DNA from: Candidatus Uhrbacteria bacterium CG10_big_fil_rev_8_21_14_0_10_50_16 | GTDB taxonomy: Bacteria; Patescibacteriota; Patescibacteriia; UBA9934; UBA11717 | Direction: 5' to 3' | Length of the DNA stretch: 64,000 bases | Assembly: GCA_002774875.1 (NCBI GenBank) | Contig: PCYM01000001.1 | Coordinates: 1,096-65,095, forward strand | Shown: positions 1,358 to 62,567 of the stretch, one piece after another | How the letters are laid out: each line of letters opens with the position of its first letter | Numbering within the stretch: position 1 is the first letter of the stretch | The notes under the pieces: model-generated | What the model was told of the DNA's origin: nothing | Seen by the model: the letters and a program-made list of their open reading frames with translations, nothing else | Databases searched by the model: none | Position numbers and translations under genes: made by a program

Positions 1358-4300
1358 ATGTTCATCATTCGATCGTTCCCGAAGTATTTAGTTGCTTGTC
1401 TCATTTTGTTATTTTTTGGATTGTTTTTTGGGGTCTTAGACGCCTCCGCCGCAAATAGATATTGGGTGGGAGCTTCTACGACTTTCAACACGACGGGCAA
1501 CTGGTCAACATCAAGCGGTGGCGCAAGCGGAGCGTCTGTTCCGGGTTCCAGCGACATTGCAATTTTTGATGGTGGAAGTGCACAGGCGGTGAGCCTGGAT
1601 GCAACAACGTTGAGCGGTTTAGATATTCAAGCCGCGTACGGTGGAACGGTTACGGCTCCTGCTGGAACACTTATCCTTATGGTGAGTTTTAGTGATGCAG
1701 CTGGTGCCTTTGTGCATAACAATGGAACCGTTCAAATTCGGACTGGCAGTGGTGCATATTTTGATTTTAATAGCAACGCAATTCTTTATAATTTAGTGAG
1801 CTTAAATGGCGCCAATTACGGAAATAGAATGAATACGTTTACCGTAAAGGTTACAGGAACATTAACGCACGGCGATGGAAGTAGCTCTGGAGGTATTTGG
1901 CAGACGGGGACATTACGGGTTGAAGGTGATTTTACTGTTGCGAAACTTGCGGATACTTACCAAATCAATAATGGAACGGGACTGATTCAATTTACGGGTT
2001 CTAATAATCAGTCATTTACTACAACAGACACCACGGACACCTTCGGGGCCCCTGTTGAGGTCAATAAAACAAGTGGAACGCTAACGCTGAATAGTGCGTT
2101 TGATTTTACTGGAGCAAGCATGACGTTCACGGTAACAGCGGGTACCGTAGACATGTCTACCTCCTCCATGACGGATGTATATAATCTTTATATTAACGGT
2201 GGAACCTTTATTCATGGATCTGGGACGTTAACAACAAAGGGGACGACGAATGCCCTGCAGGTGAATGGAGGAACGTTTACGGGAGGATCCGGTGATGTTA
2301 ATTTTGCTTCCGGTGGAGAATTGGAAATAGATAGTGGAACCTTTACGGCTCCAACGGGAAATCTAGCTCTCTCTTCAACACTGCACGTTGCGAGTGCAGG
2401 GGCGACGTTTAACCACAACAATGGAACGATTACATCAACGACATCAACTCACTTGAATATTGAGGTAGAAGGAGGGGTCGGAACGATTACAGTCTATAAC
2501 TTAACGCTTAACAAAGCTGGAGGATATAGTTTGAGTGTAAACGGGAGCTCAACGTTGGTCGTGCAAGGAACTCTTACACGAACGGCGGGACGTTTGAGTG
2601 AATCATCTTCGGCAACGTATCCTTTGCAAATAGAAGGAAATTTGGATTTTGATGCTGTTGAAACAAATGGAACCTCGACTCTTCTCGTGACAGGTTCGGG
2701 AACGCAGACACTCGATTTTGCAGATCCTGCTTCTTGGGATACGAATATCTTTGTGAACAAGTCGGGCGGGTCTGTCTCGTTGCTAACGGGGCTCACATTG
2801 AATGCGGCGAGTAACAATAACCTCACCATTCAAGAGGGGCGATTCAATGTGAATGGTCAGACCTTGTCCGTTGGGGGCACGTTGTCCGTGGAGAGTGGTG
2901 GAGACTACGCCATGACGGGAGACGAATCTGCTCCAGCACCCACGCTGGCTTCTGGCAGTATCGTAACCTATGTTGCAACTTCCGGTGCTCGAACGATTAA
3001 GGACTACGATTACAGTGCTTCAACATTGGCGTTTGATGGAGTTGGTGGGGTGTTTATTATGACCGTTGGAGGTGAAACAGTCGCTAATCTTACGATTACA
3101 AATGGATCGTTCTACCTCAATGGAGACAACCTAACGGTCACGGGAACCTTTTCTAACGACGATACCCTTATTTTGAGTGGTGATGAGACAACCGTCTCCT
3201 ATACAAACGATACAGATTCTGGAACGGTTGAATACAAGGGGGCTGTAACGGCTGCAAGCTTAAAAGGAGGGAATTCGTATTATAATCTTGCCTTTGTAAA
3301 TCCGAGTGGTAGTTGGACGGCGGCCGCTCCCGTTGATATTAATGGGTCACTTACGGTTACATCGGGAACCTTTAATACGGGAGGTTATGCAGTTACGTTG
3401 GCGGGTAATTTTACGAACGCGGCAACGTTTACACAATCGAGCGGGACACTCACCTTGGATGGGACAAATCAGACCCTATCTGGCTCCACAACGTTTTATA
3501 ATCTCACAAAGAATGTTAGCTCGGCGGCAACATTGACGTTTACTGCGGGGCAAACGTTTACCGTGTCGAATAACCTTGATCTTCAAGGAGCGTCCGGACA
3601 AGTCTTATCACTTGTTTCGAGTACGCCGACCACGGCCATTAATATGTCTGCGGCCGGCACGGTAACGGCGCAGTATCTCAACGTGTCAGACAATAACAAT
3701 ACAGGCTCCACGATTAATTGTGTGGTGGGTTGTGTGAAGGGAACCGGGAACACAGGATGGATGTTTGCTTCTTCTGCAACACCTTCCTCTGTGACGTATC
3801 AAGACACGGACGTAGACGGGGTTGTGGACCGTGTCATTATTGATTTTGGTTCGGCTGTTTCGATTGTGGGCACACTTTCTAATACACGCTTTACTTGGGT
3901 GAGTTCAACAGGAGCGAATGGTTTTGGTGGATCATTGACAGGAAACGCTTCCGTTGTTAGTGGAGACGTTGTTATTACAATCACAGGTTCAGAAACAGAT
4001 GATACGAGCCACACAACACAACCAACACTTGCTTATAGCGATAACTCAACAGATGGAACGAATTACATTGCGGATGCAAGCGGTGACCTTATTCTCACGT
4101 TTGGTGCGACAAACGCCGCGGACGGCGCATCACCTATTCTTGTATCTTCTAACCCAGCAGACGCAGACACAAGTGTCGCAAACAATGCAACGATCGCGCT
4201 TACGTTTTCTGAACCAATAAATACGGGAACGTTTGCCTATTCGTGTTGTGGAGTAGGAACAGACCCTGGACGTTCCGGAGTGTGGACAGTGTCTAATACG

Positions 4301-12280: not shown

Positions 12281-12450
12281 AGGGATTGGTTACAAATTGC
12301 GAATGAATGAGGGACGGTCTGAGTATACCGTATGGAGCGTGGTTTGTGGCAAACCTATGGATACGTGACGAAATTCTTTTCTCTGATTCTTTGCGTGTGT
12401 CCGCATTGCGTGTGCCATAAGACCTTCCGTCAATACTCCGCGTCGCTGCA

Positions 12451-12558
12451 GATGTGTGCCGATCGTGGCGATTCATTCTGAATCTTCGATCGGCTACACG
12501 GCTTCGCTCTACGGAAACCCTGCGTTTATGCCGGGGTCTTATTGTCGTACTCGTGATG
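12451..12558. repeat. structured repeat element, copy 1 (nested hairpins, no downstream cargo)
   Basis: By eye it is about 80% identical to 22002-22118. GCCGATCG (12459-12466) and CGATCGGC (12488-12495) flank a perfect inner hairpin GATTCA-TTC-TGAATC (12471-12485). A third segment GCCGGGG (12531-12537) can pair alternatively with the middle segment. Confidence 0.5.
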
Positions 12559-21912: not shown

Positions 21913-22001
21913 ACAGGCTTGCCTGCAAGCTCTCCTGGTCGTCATTGCGCGTTTCACGAAGCAATCTATTTATTCTTTCTCCCTCCTTTTTGTTTCGCCA
22001 A

Positions 22002-22118
22002 AGATGTGTGCCAATTGTGGCGATTCATGTTGAATCTTCAATTGGCTACACGGCTTCGCTCTACAGAAGGGCTTCGTTTATGCCAAGGTCTGTACGGCGT
22101 ACTCGTGGGGACACGCTG
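22002..22118. repeat. structured repeat element, copy 2 (followed by a GC-rich small ORF)
   Basis: It has the same architecture as copy 1, but both 6-nt palindromes changed concordantly (CGATCG to CAATTG) and the third pairing segment co-varies (GCCGGGG to GCCAAGG). Confidence 0.5.
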
Positions 22119-52345: not shown

Positions 52346-52585
52346 AGTTTTACATTCTTGAAACCAAGAACCAAAAATTAAAATTAATTTGGCGATATTT
52401 TGCTACCGCAAAATTAAAAAACTTTTCATTACATCGCACAACGTGCCGCGGCACGTTAGCCAACGAGCAAAGCGATGTTGGCTAACATTCCAACATATAC
52501 AATATCTAAACAGGGTAAAATGTACACGAAGTGCTTACCACTGGCAAACATGGGTGGAGGCATGCGGAGGTACGGAGCAAGCCGT

Positions 52586-52640
52586 AACCGCATACGCAGT
52601 GTTAGTTGATGTATTCCTTTTCTTTTGTTCCGCCATCGGT
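52586..52640. repeat. copy of the terminator/promoter module repeat (family also at 60936-61006 and 62350-62472)
   Basis: A shared core ...CAGTGTTAG(T/C)TGATGTATTCCTTTTCTTTTGTTCCGCCATCGG... is present, containing a short GC hairpin. Confidence 0.5.
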
Positions 52641-52831
52641 ATCGCAACCGTGGCAATCGATGCGAACAACTGTTTCTGACATCTCTTCCTCCTTCGATCC
52701 CACTATTTTGGGGGATTCAGAGCTTGTTTGGCGTGCTAATTTTTTCAAGAATATAGCCTTTTGTCAATGCATGAGCTTTGTGACCGGAGCTTCATTGTTT
52801 CTTCATCAATTCTCCGCTACACTCACACGGT

Positions 52832-58245: not shown

Positions 58246-59571
58246 ATGCCCGCAAAGAAACCACCAGCCAAGGCTGGCAAACCTGTGGTACGCCCTAAAA
58301 AGGCTGCTACGGCAAAATCGACGGCAAAAAAGCCTGTCAAAAAACCTGTTGTAAAGAAGACCGTTGCTAGAAGGGTCACTTCGGCTGCCAAAAAACCGGT
58401 TGCAAAAAAATCCGCTTCTAAAGCGTCTCCCAAGACAATAGTGCGAAAAGCTCCTGTTAAGCGCGAGCGCTATGTGCGATCAGAACCTCCTCTCCCGGAG
58501 AAACTTTTGCATTTGCTTAAAAAAGGTCAGACACGTGGTTTTATTACGGAGACAGAGATTCTCTACACCTTCCCAGACGTTGAGGATTACGTGGAAATGT
58601 ACGAAAACTTTTTAGATGAAATGGACACATGGGGATTGACCCTTGTGGAGGTGAAGGAGGGATTGTTGGGAAAGACGTCCGCACACTCAGACGCCATGGA
58701 GAAATTGCGCGTCAACGTGGACAAAAAACAACCAAGTTACGCCGAGCTCACACAAGACAATATTCAAATGTACTTGCGCGAGATCGGGAAAATTCCGTTA
58801 CTCACGGCTGAGGAAGAGGTAGCGCTGGCAAAACGTAAGGAGCGCAACGACAAAGAGGCAGAGCGACGATTGATTGAGGCAAACTTGCGTTTGGTGGTGA
58901 GTATCGCGAAGAAATTCGCAGGCAAGAGTCTAACGTTGTTGGACCTCATTCAAGAGGGGAATATTGGATTGTTCCGTGCGGTGAAAAAGTTTGAATATCG
59001 TAAGGGGTACAAGTTCTCCACGTACGCCACGTGGTGGATTCGACAAGCCATTACGCGTGCGCTTGCGGACCAGTCACGAACCATCCGTATTCCGGTGCAC
59101 ATGGTGGAGACCATTAACCGGTTCCAGCAGATTTCTCGTCGACTTTTGCAGGATTTGGGACGTGATCCCTTGCCGGAGGAGCTGGCTGCCGAGATGGATC
59201 AACCGTTGGACAAGGTGCGTCACATCATGAAGATCTCGCAGGAGACGGTTTCCTTGGAAACGTCCGTGGGAGATGATGATGAGGATTCCACGTTGGAAGA
59301 CTTTATTGAAGATAAAAAGAATATTTCGCCTCAAAAGGCTGCAGCACGGGAGATGTTGCGCATGTATGTGGCCGAGGCCATGGCGGGTCTGACACCACGC
59401 GAGCACAAGATTTTGGAGATGCGATTTGGACTGGGCGATGGCGTGAGTCACACGTTGGAGGAGGTGGGAAAAGAGTTCGACGTGACGCGTGAGCGTATTC
59501 GTCAGATTGAGGCAAAGGCGCTGGATAAAATCCAATCGCAGCAGATTATTGAACGGTTGCGAGACTACTAA
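58246..59571 (+). CDS. rpoD: RNA polymerase sigma-70 factor with a Lys/Ala/Pro-rich N-terminal tail
   Basis: Region 2 ([15 protein letters not shown]), region 3, and the region 4 helix-turn-helix ([20 protein letters not shown]) are present, in the classic dnaG-rpoD arrangement. Confidence 0.9.
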
Positions 59572-59572
59572 A

Positions 59573-59606
59573 GACAAAGACCGCCCGGTTAAGGGTGGTC
59601 TTTGGT
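59573..59606 (+). terminator. rho-independent terminator after rpoD
   Basis: The sequence is AGACCGCCC-GGTTAA-GGGTGGTCTTTGGTTTT. Confidence 0.55.
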
Positions 59607-59931
59607 TTTGAGCCTCCACCTGGTTATTTGGCGTAGGGAAGTCGGATAGTGTCTAAAAGACGGTGATGTGCGTCGGACCGGCGAGCGAGAAGTGTCACGT
59701 TTAAGACTCTACCCAGTCGGCAAATACGGCACAACACCTATCGCGGAGCTCACTTGCGGATACCACGGTATCACGCGGCTCTAAGCTCTACGCCACAATG
59801 TCCAAATAATGACAAATGGAGGCACTGGGAGTATACCTGAGGCTGGCCTGGACTGTCATATTTGGCGGGTTTGTGGGGTGTGAGAGAGACTTGTCGAACA
59901 AATCCAAACATGTTATAGTCTCGCTGTTCCA

Positions 59932-59995
59932 ACAACATTCCGAGCTCGCTTCCGCCAATGTTCCTTTTGGGCGGACAGGCAGTGGTAGAGCAGTT
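59932..59995 (+). other. partial duplicate or pseudogene of the tRNA-Asn 5' portion (candidate att-type scar)
   Basis: ACAACATTCCGAG (59932-59944) and CAGTGGTAGAGCAGTT (59980-59995) are identical to 60288-60300 and 60306-60321 of tRNA-Asn with its 5' flank. A hairpin-containing 35-nt segment separates them. Confidence 0.45.
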
Positions 59996-60057
59996 TCAGC
60001 CGTAGGCTGACCCGCCTATCAAGTTTTATTCAGTGGCGGGGACTGTACGGATACCGT

Positions 60058-60303
60058 ATGTACACTGTGTATGTTTTGCGAAGTCTTACATCCGGGAAAC
60101 GATATATTGGTTATACGGCAAAGGCTGTTCAAGAAAGACTCTTGGACCACCATAGCGGTACGAATCAATGGACAAGGGCTCACAGACCCTTTGAAATAAT
60201 TCATTGCGAAACGTACCAGGACAAGAAATTCGCCATACAACGTGAACGCTTTTTAAAAAGTGGAAGCGGAAGGCGGTGGTTGGACGACAACATTCCGAGG
60301 TAG
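60058..60303 (+). CDS. GIY-YIG nuclease-domain protein (small stand-alone URI-domain type)
   Basis: YTVYVLRSLTSGKRYIGYT...RLLDHHSG...W.R...PFEIIHCETY...A...ER.LK matches the GIY-YIG fold. Its stop overlaps the first nucleotides of tRNA-Asn. Confidence 0.65.
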   Translation: MYTVYVLRSLTSGKRYIGYTAKAVQERLLDHHSGTNQWTRAHRPFEIIHCETYQDKKFAIQRERFLKSGSGRRWLDDNIPR

Positions 60304-60368
60304 CTCAGTGGTAGAGCAGTTGACTGTTAATCAATTGGTCGTGGGTTCGAGCCCCACCCTCGGAGCCA
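60294..60368 (+). tRNA. tRNA-Asn (anticodon GTT)
   Basis: The cloverleaf folds by hand. The acceptor is TCCGAGG/CCTCGGA, the D stem GCTC/GAGC, the anticodon loop CTGTTAA, and the T arm GTGGG-TTCGAGC-CCCAC. CCA is encoded. Confidence 0.85.
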
Positions 60369-60465
60369 ACAAAAAGCCTCAGTTTTACTGAGGTTTTTTG
60401 TTTGACGCAACTGGGCTTCAGAACCCGTATGTGATAAAATATTCACGAACCTTTTAATTACTACT

Positions 60466-61056
60466 ATGTCTGAACACCCTGAAAGAGCTCCTGACATTGT
60501 TCGGGAACAAAGTAAGAAGGAACGGTACGAACTCACTTCGGCCAACGGTGAAGTTATCGGATCTGTGGAAGCAGAATATGGGACTATATTGGGTGATGAT
60601 ATCGATTTGACTTATAATGCCCACGCTTTTGACGATCCATCAAATATTGTGAGGTTGCAGCGCCTGACAGTTGAGTCCGCTGATGGAGACAAGGTGGATA
60701 TTTTTGACCTCCTTAAAGCTGATACGAGCAAGGTTTTAATAATCAATGACTATAAATATGTCGAATGTTCTCACGAGGGAGTTGTGTATATAGTCAAGCC
60801 GAGCTCATTATTGCGACTATTGACAACTCTTCATGAACTTGGTCATTTGGAGCAAATAGTTGATGAGAAAACCGCTTCCGCAATAGAGATGCGAAAACTA
60901 AATGCGACGCAAGTAGGGTTGGTGGAGAAGAACGAGTTAGCTGATGTATTCCTTTTCTTTTTTGGGCTATCGCCCAATTGTTTTAAAAAATTTTCAAATT
61001 TCTTTTCGCAGCACATCCCGATAAAAAGAAGAGCCGCCCACCAGATGAGCCAGTAG
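60466..61056 (+). CDS. hypothetical protein with an HExxH (HELGH) motif, possibly an ImmA/IrrE-like metallopeptidase
   Basis: It is AT-rich and contains LTTLHELGHLEQ. The last 40 or so codons are encoded by repeat sequences (60936-61073), so the true C-terminus is doubtful. Confidence 0.35.
   Translation: MSEHPERAPDIVREQSKKERYELTSANGEVIGSVEAEYGTILGDDIDLTYNAHAFDDPSNIVRLQRLTVESADGDKVDIFDLLKADTSKVLIINDYKYVECSHEGVVYIVKPSSLLRLLTTLHELGHLEQIVDEKTASAIEMRKLNATQVGLVEKNELADVFLFFFGLSPNCFKKFSNFFSQHIPIKRRAAHQMSQ
60936..61006. repeat. terminator/promoter module repeat, copy A
   Basis: The sequence is GTTAGCTGATGTATTCCTTTTCTTTTTTGGGCTATCGCCCAATTGTTTTAAAAAATTTTCAAATTTCTTT. It matches 62392-62472 in inverted orientation and 52595-52640. 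Confidence 0.5.
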
Positions 61057-61073
61057 GCGGCTCGTGGTGGACG
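61028..61073 (-). terminator. conserved 46-nt hairpin terminator (minus strand), copy 1
   Basis: GCCGCCCACCA...TGGTGGACGG forms a hairpin, followed on the minus strand by TCTTCTTTTTAT. It is nearly identical to 61782-61827. Confidence 0.5.
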
Positions 61074-61084
61074 GCTAGGTTGGA

Positions 61085-61597: not shown

Positions 61598-61781
61598 TTA
61601 CACCTCCATGAGGAGACGTGAGTGTTCGGCTGTACCCGCCGTGGGTTGCGTTCCGTAAAAGGAAACGACGCTAAAATATAGTCCATTTTATAAAAGTAGT
61701 CAATAGAAGCTCGCCAAAAAAGGCATTTTTTGCGAATTTATGTACACTTGACGCACGGCGGCGGCGCGACGAAAAGAAATT

Positions 61782-61827
61782 AAGAGCCGCCCACCAGATG
61801 AGCCGGTAGACGACTCGTGGTGGGCGG
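61782..61827 (-). terminator. conserved 46-nt hairpin terminator (minus strand), copy 2
   Basis: CCGCCCACCA-N21-TGGTGGGCGG is a perfect 10-bp stem, followed on the minus strand by TCTTAATTTCTTTTCG. Confidence 0.5.
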
Positions 61828-61842
61828 TACAGATGGAGTGCT

Positions 61843-62262
61843 TCACTCCGCGAGTTCGACACTCCGAACCATGAAGGGACGGGATCCGGTGTAATGCTGT
61901 TCTGCGAGACTCGCCACCTGGCACAGCACGTTGACCCTCGTACCCTCCTGGAGCATCGCACTGGAGGGATCGCTGCCCAGATGCTTCTCGAACCGCGGAG
62001 GGTAGATCGGAGCAGGATCTCGCCAGTAAGTGAGTGCTGCCAGCGAGTCTGGATGATGCGGATGGTGTCGTCTGATGACCGCCTTGACGGTCTCCAGATC
62101 GAGCTCGACGATGATCGTGTATGTCTCCGGAATGGGTTCGAAGATCTGGAAGCCGAAGACCGAGAACCCGGATCTTGCCGGATATGTCTTCACACCGATG
62201 ATCTTCCCAGGGATGGTGACCTTCGAGCCGCTGGCCTGAGGCGCGAATCTTGGGGTCTGCAT
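61843..62262 (-). CDS. hypothetical protein (GC-rich cargo gene)
   Basis: The start is at MQTPRFAPQ, with AGGAGG 6 nt upstream. A sigma70-like promoter, TTGACT-16-TATATT, lies on the minus strand at 62323-62350. The conserved terminator follows the stop. Confidence 0.4.
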   Translation of the reverse strand: MQTPRFAPQASGSKVTIPGKIIGVKTYPARSGFSVFGFQIFEPIPETYTIIVELDLETVKAVIRRHHPHHPDSLAALTYWRDPAPIYPPRFEKHLGSDPSSAMLQEGTRVNVLCQVASLAEQHYTGSRPFMVRSVELAE

Positions 62263-62322
62263 ACGACCTCCTGTTCTGAATGTCACGGCTGTCCCTGCCG
62301 TAGGGGTCGAAAGCGACATTAA

Positions 62323-62350
62323 AATATACTCTATTCAGAAAAAAAGTCAA
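62323..62350 (-). promoter_or_regulatory. sigma70-like promoter (TTGACT-N16-TATATT) inside repeat copy B, driving the 61843..62262 gene
   Basis: On the minus strand the sequence reads TTGACTTTTTTTCTGAATAGAGTATATTTTA. Confidence 0.45.
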
Positions 62351-62472
62351 TGGTCGCCCAATATCTCGGACATATGTATAATGAAAGAAATTTGAAAATT
62401 TTTCAAAACAAGTCCCGCCGATGGCGGAACAAAAGAAAAGGAATACATCAGCTAACACTGGCTATGCGGTTC
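62350..62472. repeat. terminator/promoter module repeat, copy B (inverted relative to copy A)
   Basis: On the minus strand the sequence reads ...CGCATAGCCAGTGTTAGCTGATGTATTCCTTTTCTTTTGTTCCGCCATCGGCGGGACTTGTTTTGAAAAATTTTCAAATTTCTTTC..., followed by the promoter. Confidence 0.5.
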
Positions 62473-62567
62473 CGTTTCACTACACCCATATTTGCTTTCA
62501 CTTCGCTACAGCAAACATCGCATAGCCAGAAACGTTTTCAGAAGTTTCAAGACTTCAACGTCGTTAC

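Follow-up and report, generated by a model that had tools for sequence, protein, structure and literature searches.

We examined a tRNA-Asn gene that lies downstream of rpoD in Candidatus Uhrbacteria bacterium CG10_big_fil_rev_8_21_14_0_10_50_16 and that is preceded by a partial copy of itself and a small GIY-YIG nuclease gene. The analysis covered a 64,000-nucleotide (nt) stretch of contig PCYM01000001.1, which we call the window; coordinates without a locus label refer to it. An earlier sequence-only reading had reported that 13 nt and 16 nt of the tRNA gene recur upstream, with an 81-residue GIY-YIG open reading frame (ORF) between the partial copy and the intact tRNA. Both repeats are exact and unique in the 64 kb, ACAACATTCCGAG being found only at 59932-59944 and 60287-60299 and CAGTGGTAGAGCAGTT only at 59980-59995 and 60306-60321. 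For each of them, 0.05-0.06 occurrences are expected, and two matches were obtained in 0 of 100 shuffles, which excludes the objection that the partial match is too short to be significant. The duplicated portion runs further than the flank, acceptor and D-arm pieces recognized at first. The hexamer CTCGCT (59945-59950) aligns with tRNA nt 7-12 (GTAGCT), and the hairpin-bearing insert that separates the two pieces, previously given as 35 nt, is therefore 29 nt long (59951-59979); its hairpin is one of three palindromes in the copy rather than the only one. Block 1 of the copy is identical to 60287-60305 at 17 of 19 positions (direct repeat D1), the differences falling on tRNA nt 7 and 9. With the palindromes removed, the upstream copy (59939-60046, three blocks) corresponds to tRNA nt 1-34, up to the second anticodon base, with 32 of 34 matches. 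This copy is dead by the available models: neither Rfam RF00005 at E≤10 nor ARAGORN matches it as a tRNA, and Rfam at E≤10 on 59500-60500 returned the live tRNA and terminator-like noise only, with no intron and no known leader.

The nuclease start codon follows the end of the dead copy by 11 nt. The insert as a whole measures 355 nt, and no ORF between the repeats other than the nuclease gene has a family match. As had been noted, its stop overlaps the tRNA. The last codons and the TAG stop (60301-60303) derive from the tRNA flank and tRNA nt 1-10, so that the duplicated native flank ACAACAT now codes for the nuclease end and the stop itself is the conserved UAG at tRNA nt 8-10. The features of the locus are collected in Table 1. 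For the hairpin that follows the tRNA, the terminator scan called the stem on the minus strand only, and its plus-strand reading rests on a T-run read from the sequence.

Table 1. Features of the rpoD-tRNA-Asn region (window coordinates)
Feature	Position	Strand	Description
rpoD	58246-59571		Five sigma-70 Pfam domains
Terminator-like hairpin 3′ of rpoD	59570-59609		
Probable native tRNA-Asn promoter	59891-59919	+	TTGTCG, 17-nt spacer, TG-n-TATAGT; from promoter scan
Dead copy, block 1	59932-59950	+	7-nt 5′ flank ACAACAT and tRNA nt 1-12 (TCCGAGCTCGCT)
Palindrome 1	59951-59975	+	TCCGCC, 13-nt loop, GGCGGA; at D-stem/D-loop position
Dead copy, block 2	59980-59995	+	tRNA nt 13-28 (CAGTGGTAGAGCAGTT); exact 16-nt repeat of 60306-60321
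Palindrome 2	59996-60010	+	TCAGCC GTA GGCTGA; canonical family hairpin, 6-bp stem, 3-nt loop
Palindrome 3	60011-60040	+	CCCGCC, 18-nt loop, GGCGGG
Dead copy, block 3	60041-60046	+	GACTGT, tRNA nt 29-34; ends after second anticodon base
GIY-YIG nuclease gene	60058-60303	+	81 residues, catalytic domain only
tRNA-Asn(GTT), intact, functional-looking	60294-60368	+	ARAGORN; Rfam 74 bits
Terminator-like hairpin	60368-60402	+	Inverted repeat I1, AACAAAAAGCCTCAGT / ACTGAGGTTTTTTGTT; would close the unit

We compared the window with 80 metagenomic loci fetched with the lineage-specific N-terminal part of RpoD as query (labelled L001 and so on). At 13 of these loci, an intact tRNA-Asn begins 16-101 nt after rpoD and a GIY-YIG gene is missing; tblastn at E≤10 found no nuclease remnant in any of the 13. 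Eight loci, namely the window, L141, L086, L153, L001, L007, L009 and L010, carry a GIY-YIG gene between rpoD and tRNA-Asn, so that close relatives show a presence/absence polymorphism at one conserved site. RpoD identity to the window is 86% for L141, 84% for L086, 82% for L001 and likewise 82% for the empty-site locus L087. Ahead of the intact tRNA at the empty L087 site, the 5′ flank and a promoter with -35 and extended -10 elements align with the sequence before the partial copy in the window, L141, L086 and L001, and the upstream stub thus represents the original gene start with its promoter. The complete tRNA-Asn downstream exists because the 7-nt flank ACAACAT and the 5′ part of the gene were duplicated. 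The comparison of empty and occupied loci establishes an insertion in the tRNA-Asn gene with duplication of its flank and nt 1-34. It bears out the earlier suggestion of an insertion scar with a rebuilt tRNA 5′ end and likewise supports the GIY-YIG gene as the mobile passenger, although mobility driven by the nuclease itself, like the role of the palindromes, is something we infer. Synteny could be used on the rpoD side only, because the two ORFs downstream of the tRNA-Asn have no homologues in any fetched locus. A screen of 20 rpoD loci in which no tRNA had been detected gave no tRNA split by an intron.

The same site has been hit more than once. L086 holds a nuclease of a different clade there, again with a hairpin pair in the D-loop of its stub. 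L141 contains two stubs; what probably remains of a deleted ORF comes after the first (14 of 15 nt; 1 of 1000 shuffles scored as high), and the second carries TCCGCCagaGGCGGA CCAGCCtccGGCTGG in its D-loop. L005 contains three copies of the first tRNA part, the ORF of L009 has an internal stop, and tandem, deleted or stop-containing copies occur across L141, L069, L034 and L009. Block layouts and junction positions vary among the window, L141, L001 and L010, and in each lineage the stub sequence follows that lineage's own tRNA. The tandem arrays in L005 and L141 suggest re-invasion, and the loci together demonstrate a patchy distribution with independent, repeated events at rpoD-tRNA-Asn. Two further loci show unusual surroundings. 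In L002, the cassette has hairpin-bearing tRNA-Asn stubs on both sides and no complete tRNA nearby, and a 6S RNA gene (967-1152, 81.8 bits) lies about 120 nt downstream of it. L004 has a long inverted repeat (2530-2660 and 3570-3714) that reaches the contig end and may be an assembly fold-back.

We next consider the nuclease family as a whole. Run over one genome for each species, a scan with the protein alignment gave at least 514 confirmed homologous stretches and returned 80 loci, which span groups of the candidate phyla radiation (CPR), Ignavibacteria, Chlorobi, Bacteroidota, Acidobacteriota, Verrucomicrobia, Chloroflexi and others. When the 300 nt upstream of each ORF were compared with the ORF end and downstream region, a flanking direct repeat exceeded the 99th percentile of cross-locus controls in 32 of 88 ORFs, and these repeats are pieces of the neighbouring tRNA. 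In the protein clade of the window, 28 of 31 ORFs have a same-strand tRNA within 150 nt; 26 of the 28 tRNAs lie downstream, including two split by group I introns and some cut by contig ends. In a sister clade, 19 of 21 ORFs have a tRNA on the same strand at no more than this distance, and in 12 cases an intact tRNA stands upstream and a dead 3′ part downstream. The tRNAs include those for Asn, Val, Met, Pro, Arg, Ser, Gln, Cys, Leu, His, Thr and Lys, among others. All 34 loci with a tRNA at most 60 nt downstream gave a local match to it upstream of the ORF, beginning at nt 1 in 28 of them, by a permissive alignment run without a control. The end positions of these matches are variable, mostly within 25 nt of the ATG, and 13 ORFs end inside the tRNA. 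The tRNA-nested arrangement is a family trait and not a local accident. Another sister clade, protein cluster 2 (for example L048, L030, L077, L026, L024 and L063), is mostly not found beside tRNAs. Viral contigs yielded only two homologues, both weak and neither beside a tRNA.

The palindromes travel with this family. For hairpins built on a GCC-N3-4-GGC core with 5 bp or more in the stem, we found 2.93 per kb in the nuclease flanks versus 0.17 per kb elsewhere in the same loci; the density is 0.12 per kb in loci lacking the gene and 0.38 per kb around tRNAs with no nuclease gene nearby. The palindromes are mostly paired. They sit in the D-loop region (13 cases), at nt 25-29, often replacing the anticodon arm (11), and in the T-loop (4), the anticodon loop (3) or the 3′ acceptor strand (1), always in the dead copy, whether that copy precedes or follows the ORF. 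Their outer three stem pairs co-vary (TCCGCC, TCAGCC, CCCGCC, CCAGCC, TGCGCC, CTCGCC, GTCGCC), and 92 perfect 6-bp palindromes were counted; TCAGCC is the second commonest stem of the family. The type of palindrome follows the protein clade: cluster 2 is a third clade without these palindromes and has its own motif, TTACG[TC]G / C[AG]CGTAA, present at 3.2 per kb in its flanks versus a background of 0.22 per kb and in 17 of 25 loci. These counts demonstrate palindromes that are clade-specific and, in the sequences compared, confined to the dead copy. In the window, the canonical 3-nt loop is found in palindrome 2 only, and palindromes 1 and 3 combine canonical stems with enlarged loops, as in L011. 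Hairpins at the position of palindrome 1 recur in L011 and in copy (i) of L005. The sequence CCGCC..GGCGG has only five sites in the 64 kb, two of them in the tRNA-Asn leader. In a single case, the stub of L153, the hairpin that takes the place of the anticodon arm (2073-2088, TCCCGC GGCC GCGGGA) includes CCGCGG, the site at which the GIY-YIG restriction enzyme Cfr42I recognizes DNA (PMC2241918).

Hairpins with one mismatch show no sense-strand G·U excess (5 G·T, 13 A·C, 9 other), and the stub with its hairpins, folded as one RNA, is no better than shuffles (z = -0.97). For lack of a G·U excess and of unusual leader stability, we dropped a sense-strand RNA element as an explanation, and for the same reasons DNA-level cognate sites are favoured; the GCC-N3-GGC palindromes are most likely such sites for the nuclease.

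The 81-residue protein matches GIY-YIG (PF01541) with an E value of 6.4e-13 and 49.2 bits (cut-off 22.6) over residues 1-70. Tyr-5, Tyr-16, Arg-27 and Glu-63 are invariant in 24 homologues, and His-31 is nearly so. Its AlphaFold model (predicted local distance difference test score, pLDDT, 94) is a bare GIY-YIG core with strands at residues 2-9, 15-20 and 45-53 plus helices, and displays the three-stranded sheet flanked by helices that the superfamily requires. The best fold matches in the PDB are BH0048, EF2693 (UPF0213), the Slx1 nuclease domains (root mean square deviation 2.2-3.6 Å) and the I-TevI catalytic domain. The ratio of non-synonymous to synonymous substitution rates (dN/dS) is 0.16 for L002-L005; between the window and L141 or L001, the proportion of non-synonymous differences (pN) is about 0.22 and that of synonymous differences (pS) about 0.9, with synonymous sites saturated. 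By these values the gene is evidently under purifying selection. A profile search returned 23,032 cluster representatives at E≤1e-3 and 6,523 at E≤1e-10, and those among the best 150 listed are mostly 80-125 residues long. Searches of NCBIfam, PHROGs and PADLOC with the protein gave no credible match, and readings of the gene as part of a defence system or a phage were dropped on that account.

The surroundings of the unit hold several features of their own. RpoD has a Lys/Ala/Pro-rich N-terminal extension of about 80 residues ahead of region 1.1 (58246-58500). About 320 nt of unassigned sequence lie between the rpoD terminator and the tRNA unit, and the sole conservation found in the 360-nt spacer from that terminator to the tRNA promoter is a 66-nt stretch, 59742-59807, that is 76% identical to L086 1757-1822. 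A repeat consisting of GTTAGCTGATGTATTCCTTTTCTTTT, a GC hairpin and TTGTTTTGAAAAATTTTCAAATTTCTTT occurs three times in the window (52583-52650 and 60936-61005 on the plus strand, 62384-62474 on the minus strand), with a stem that varies between TTCCGCC/GGCGGGA and TTGGGC/GCCCAA, and looks like a terminator/promoter module. The sequence-only reading had likened the hairpin of palindrome 1 to this repeat; we rejected it as a copy, as the two have only a T-rich stretch and a GC stem in common, and it belongs instead with the three palindromes that accompany the nuclease family. Just downstream of the tRNA-Asn unit, 61024-61074 and 61777-61827 form a 51-nt direct repeat with 88% identity, and ORFs 60466-61056 and 61700-62458 (minus strand) have end sequences in common; the 51-nt repeat and the inverted copies of the terminator/promoter-like module suggest that 60.9-62.5 kb is a rearranged or duplicated segment. 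Elsewhere in the window, 12443-12555 and 21995-22107 form a 113-nt direct repeat, 81% identical, with 9.5 kb between the copies.

We think it probable that the window holds a minimal, free-standing homing-type GIY-YIG endonuclease cassette in a tRNA gene, which was restored by partial duplication and not by splicing. The original tRNA-Asn gene after rpoD was broken after its second anticodon base by insertion of the nuclease gene, and the partial duplication takes the role that splicing has for an intron, keeping the essential tRNA alive. The only promoter-like site on the plus strand is the old tRNA promoter, and for this reason we propose that it now drives the stub, the nuclease mRNA and the tRNA as one transcript, extending to the terminator-like hairpin at 60368-60402. 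RNase P cleavage at the tRNA 5′ end would then remove the stop codon of the mRNA and may hold the nuclease level low. The nuclease would break tRNA genes, and repair would copy the cassette from an occupied allele. Since tRNA sequence flanks the ORF on both sides, it could provide homology arms portable to any genome, as in intronless homing. The palindromes would be the cognate sites of the nuclease and might also interrupt direct repeats that are otherwise prone to delete the cassette.

Several observations weigh against this proposal. The live tRNA-Asn is indistinguishable from the tRNA-Asn at empty sites, so no immunity is visible there, and only the dead copy is disrupted by palindromes. 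The order rpoD-nuclease-tRNA-Asn is common to distant CPR lineages, and nuclease identity (52-71%) roughly tracks that of RpoD (54-86%), such that long vertical inheritance, interrupted now and then by a precise loss, could account for much of the patchy distribution. The match of each dead copy to the tRNA of its own lineage seems to fit in-situ duplication or gene conversion better than an imported arm, and the left homology arm is short (12-34 nt). The family is nearly absent from viral contigs (2 hits), so that these point to no vector for its transfer. Finally, the nuclease activity and target site of the 81-residue protein are predictions, and the protein lacks a dedicated DNA-binding domain such as recognition of a long site calls for; with 81 residues and no such domain, unlike I-TevI and the Seg proteins, its site specificity is left unexplained.

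The strongest competing explanation is domestication: the gene would be a stable, vertically inherited member of tRNA operons and would serve the cell, for example in RNA or DNA metabolism at highly transcribed tRNA genes. The hairpin stub would then be a functional 5′ leader, acting as an mRNA stabilizer or autoregulatory site, and the absences would be losses. The rpoD-GIY-YIG-tRNA-Asn synteny in Saccharibacteria, Falkowbacteria and the lineage of the window, together with the divergence that tracks RpoD, speaks for this explanation, as does the strong purifying selection on the nuclease gene. The window, copy (i) of L005 and L011 moreover have a hairpin layout in common (after nt 12, after nt 28-29, then GRCTGT), and a fusion of a GIY-YIG domain of the Slx1 cluster with a TrmH-like tRNA methylase has been recorded (PMC1564403). 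Yet relatives as close as 82% in RpoD cleanly lack the gene, two unrelated nuclease clades occupy the same site, and tandem, deleted and stop-containing copies exist (L141, L069, L034, L009). About a dozen tRNA identities are used, with the dead copy before or after the ORF, and a functional leader finds no support in the G·U counts or in the folding of the leader (z = -0.97). We therefore regard domestication as unlikely, while giving it more weight than the explanations that follow.

Group I introns offer another possible origin. Introns without an ORF split tRNA-Asn after its second anticodon base (after CTGT) in L005 (2842-3073, 89.5 bits) and L008 (2773-3100, 63.7 bits), in both cases directly downstream of a homologous GIY-YIG gene. 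The same intron split is probably present in L001 from position 2284, and L015 possibly shows the arrangement in another tRNA. The stubs of the window, L005, L010, L011 and L002 all end after the second anticodon base. The ORF might once have encoded the endonuclease carried by a group I intron that sat in the anticodon loop of tRNA-Asn; the ribozyme would then have decayed, with a duplicate tRNA rescuing function. The dead copy ends exactly where the L005 and L008 introns interrupt tRNA-Asn, and a dead copy that ends at an intron insertion site has the geometry of collaborative homing, with L005 and L008 showing its layout (PMC3984707). Against such a wreck, the group I model RF00028 has no match at E≤10 in 59500-60500, where the downstream tRNA is uninterrupted, and the junctions of other tRNAs fall in the D-arm or T-loop, positions with no known introns. 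There is also no room for a ribozyme, because the gap between stub and ATG is 11 nt and the ORF runs directly into the tRNA. This origin appears improbable for the window. That ORF-less group I introns occur together with the gene at this anticodon position bears directly on how mobile introns are assembled.

That the locus is the attachment-site (att) scar of an integrase island, a plain tandem duplication or a chance match is refuted for practical purposes and has, in our estimate, next to no probability: tRNA genes are classic integration sites flanked by direct tRNA repeats, and prokaryotic genomes commonly contain fragments of tRNA genes (PMC9897764), but the 355-nt insert contains only the nuclease ORF and no recombinase, the tRNA 5′ part and not the 3′ part is duplicated, the repeat statistics exclude chance, and the same design recurs in dozens of loci.

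Returning to the homing-type cassette, we tentatively suggest, with less confidence than for the locus itself, that the window is a member of a very large undescribed class in which catalytic-only GIY-YIG nucleases of about 80 residues, acting together with their own GCC-N3-GGC palindromes, colonize tRNA genes whatever their identity. Such nucleases would target loop positions (D-loop, anticodon arm, T-loop), perhaps recognizing DNA structure rather than sequence. The host would survive because they duplicate a part of its tRNA gene, as a DNA-level alternative to an intron, and they may plant palindromes in the redundant tRNA copies. There is a substantial chance that the cassette represents such a large, unrecognized class of tRNA-gene parasites. 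Among small bacterial proteins that lack an explanation, stand-alone GIY-YIG proteins of about 80-100 residues (UPF0213 type) belong to the commonest, and the family would gain a function if many of its members proved to be tRNA-gene parasites. Many orphan tRNA fragments and tRNA-like pseudogenes in annotation would likewise find an explanation, and a nuclease so small that finds many tRNA identities would be of interest as a structure-guided DNA cutter.

We compared the cassette with known systems. In the literature searched we found no account of a GIY-YIG gene nested within a bacterial tRNA gene, which is no proof of absence, and the 2006 survey of the GIY-YIG superfamily does not report an association with tRNA genes. 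The closest parallel is SegB of phage T4, a GIY-YIG endonuclease in a tRNA gene cluster (PMC2330249); it cuts the DNA of tRNA genes, and gene conversion is the route of its inheritance (PMC2330249, PMC2988022). Both are free-standing GIY-YIG genes among or beside tRNA genes, and the presence of both varies among relatives. However, Seg proteins exceed 200 residues and have DNA-binding domains, whereas the window protein is an 81-residue catalytic domain alone. SegB sits between genes, whereas the ORF described here splits a tRNA gene that is restored by partial duplication and accompanied by putative cognate palindromes, and in contrast to the phage Seg genes its family is chromosomal apart from the two viral-contig hits. 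Intronless and collaborative homing (PMC3984707, PMC2988022, PMC2790892) are further precedents. The likeness to collaborative homing lies in the dead copy ending at a group I intron insertion site (PMC3984707, PMC2790892), but the tRNA-Asn of the window has no intron, and the endonuclease gene itself occupies one copy of the target. In the same bacterial group (CPR), rRNA genes hold insertions that are not introns, sit at the top or base of a stem-loop and contain GIY-YIG ORFs (Tsurumaki et al. 2024, PMC11270868), and these too are ORFs inside genes for structured RNAs. That study concerns rRNA genes, does not mention tRNA and reports neither target duplication nor a palindrome family, and its authors judged the ORFs to lie outside homing (PMC11270868); the class of nucleases suggested above may explain these insertions.

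Other systems resemble the cassette in single features. In sequence and fold its nuclease is matched best by the stand-alone minimal GIY-YIG domains of UPF0213 (YhbQ, EF2693, BH0048) and Slx1. A structure-specific nuclease that acts on branched DNA, Slx1 needs its partner Slx4, and we know of no report of tRNA-gene nesting or palindromes for UPF0213 or Slx1. Repetitive extragenic palindromic (REP) sequences and their REP-associated tyrosine transposases (RAYTs) likewise combine a small nuclease gene with short GC-rich flanking palindromes typed by protein clade. RAYTs, however, are HUH/Y1 enzymes, and REPs are scattered over genomes in hundreds; here the enzyme belongs to the GIY-YIG superfamily, and the palindromes stay beside its gene instead of being dispersed. 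Integrative elements with tRNA genes as their targets bring a tRNA segment along in the phage-type attachment site (attP), and the cassette resembles them in its tRNA target, in the flanking direct tRNA repeats and in supplying the displaced part as a duplicate, which preserves the function of the tRNA gene. It differs in having no integrase, in duplicating the 5′ instead of the 3′ part, and in its length of 355 nt versus kilobases; the recombinase and the att repeats of a tRNA 3′ end that mark an integrase island are both missing, as its repeats come from the tRNA 5′ part. None of the precedents compared brings together a catalytic-only nuclease, cognate palindromes and a partial duplication that restores the split tRNA gene. 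Two ways of occupying an essential RNA gene without killing the host are known, self-splicing and an integrase-driven element that carries the displaced tRNA end. If many of the small GIY-YIG proteins are indeed tRNA-gene parasites, in-situ partial duplication would be a third.

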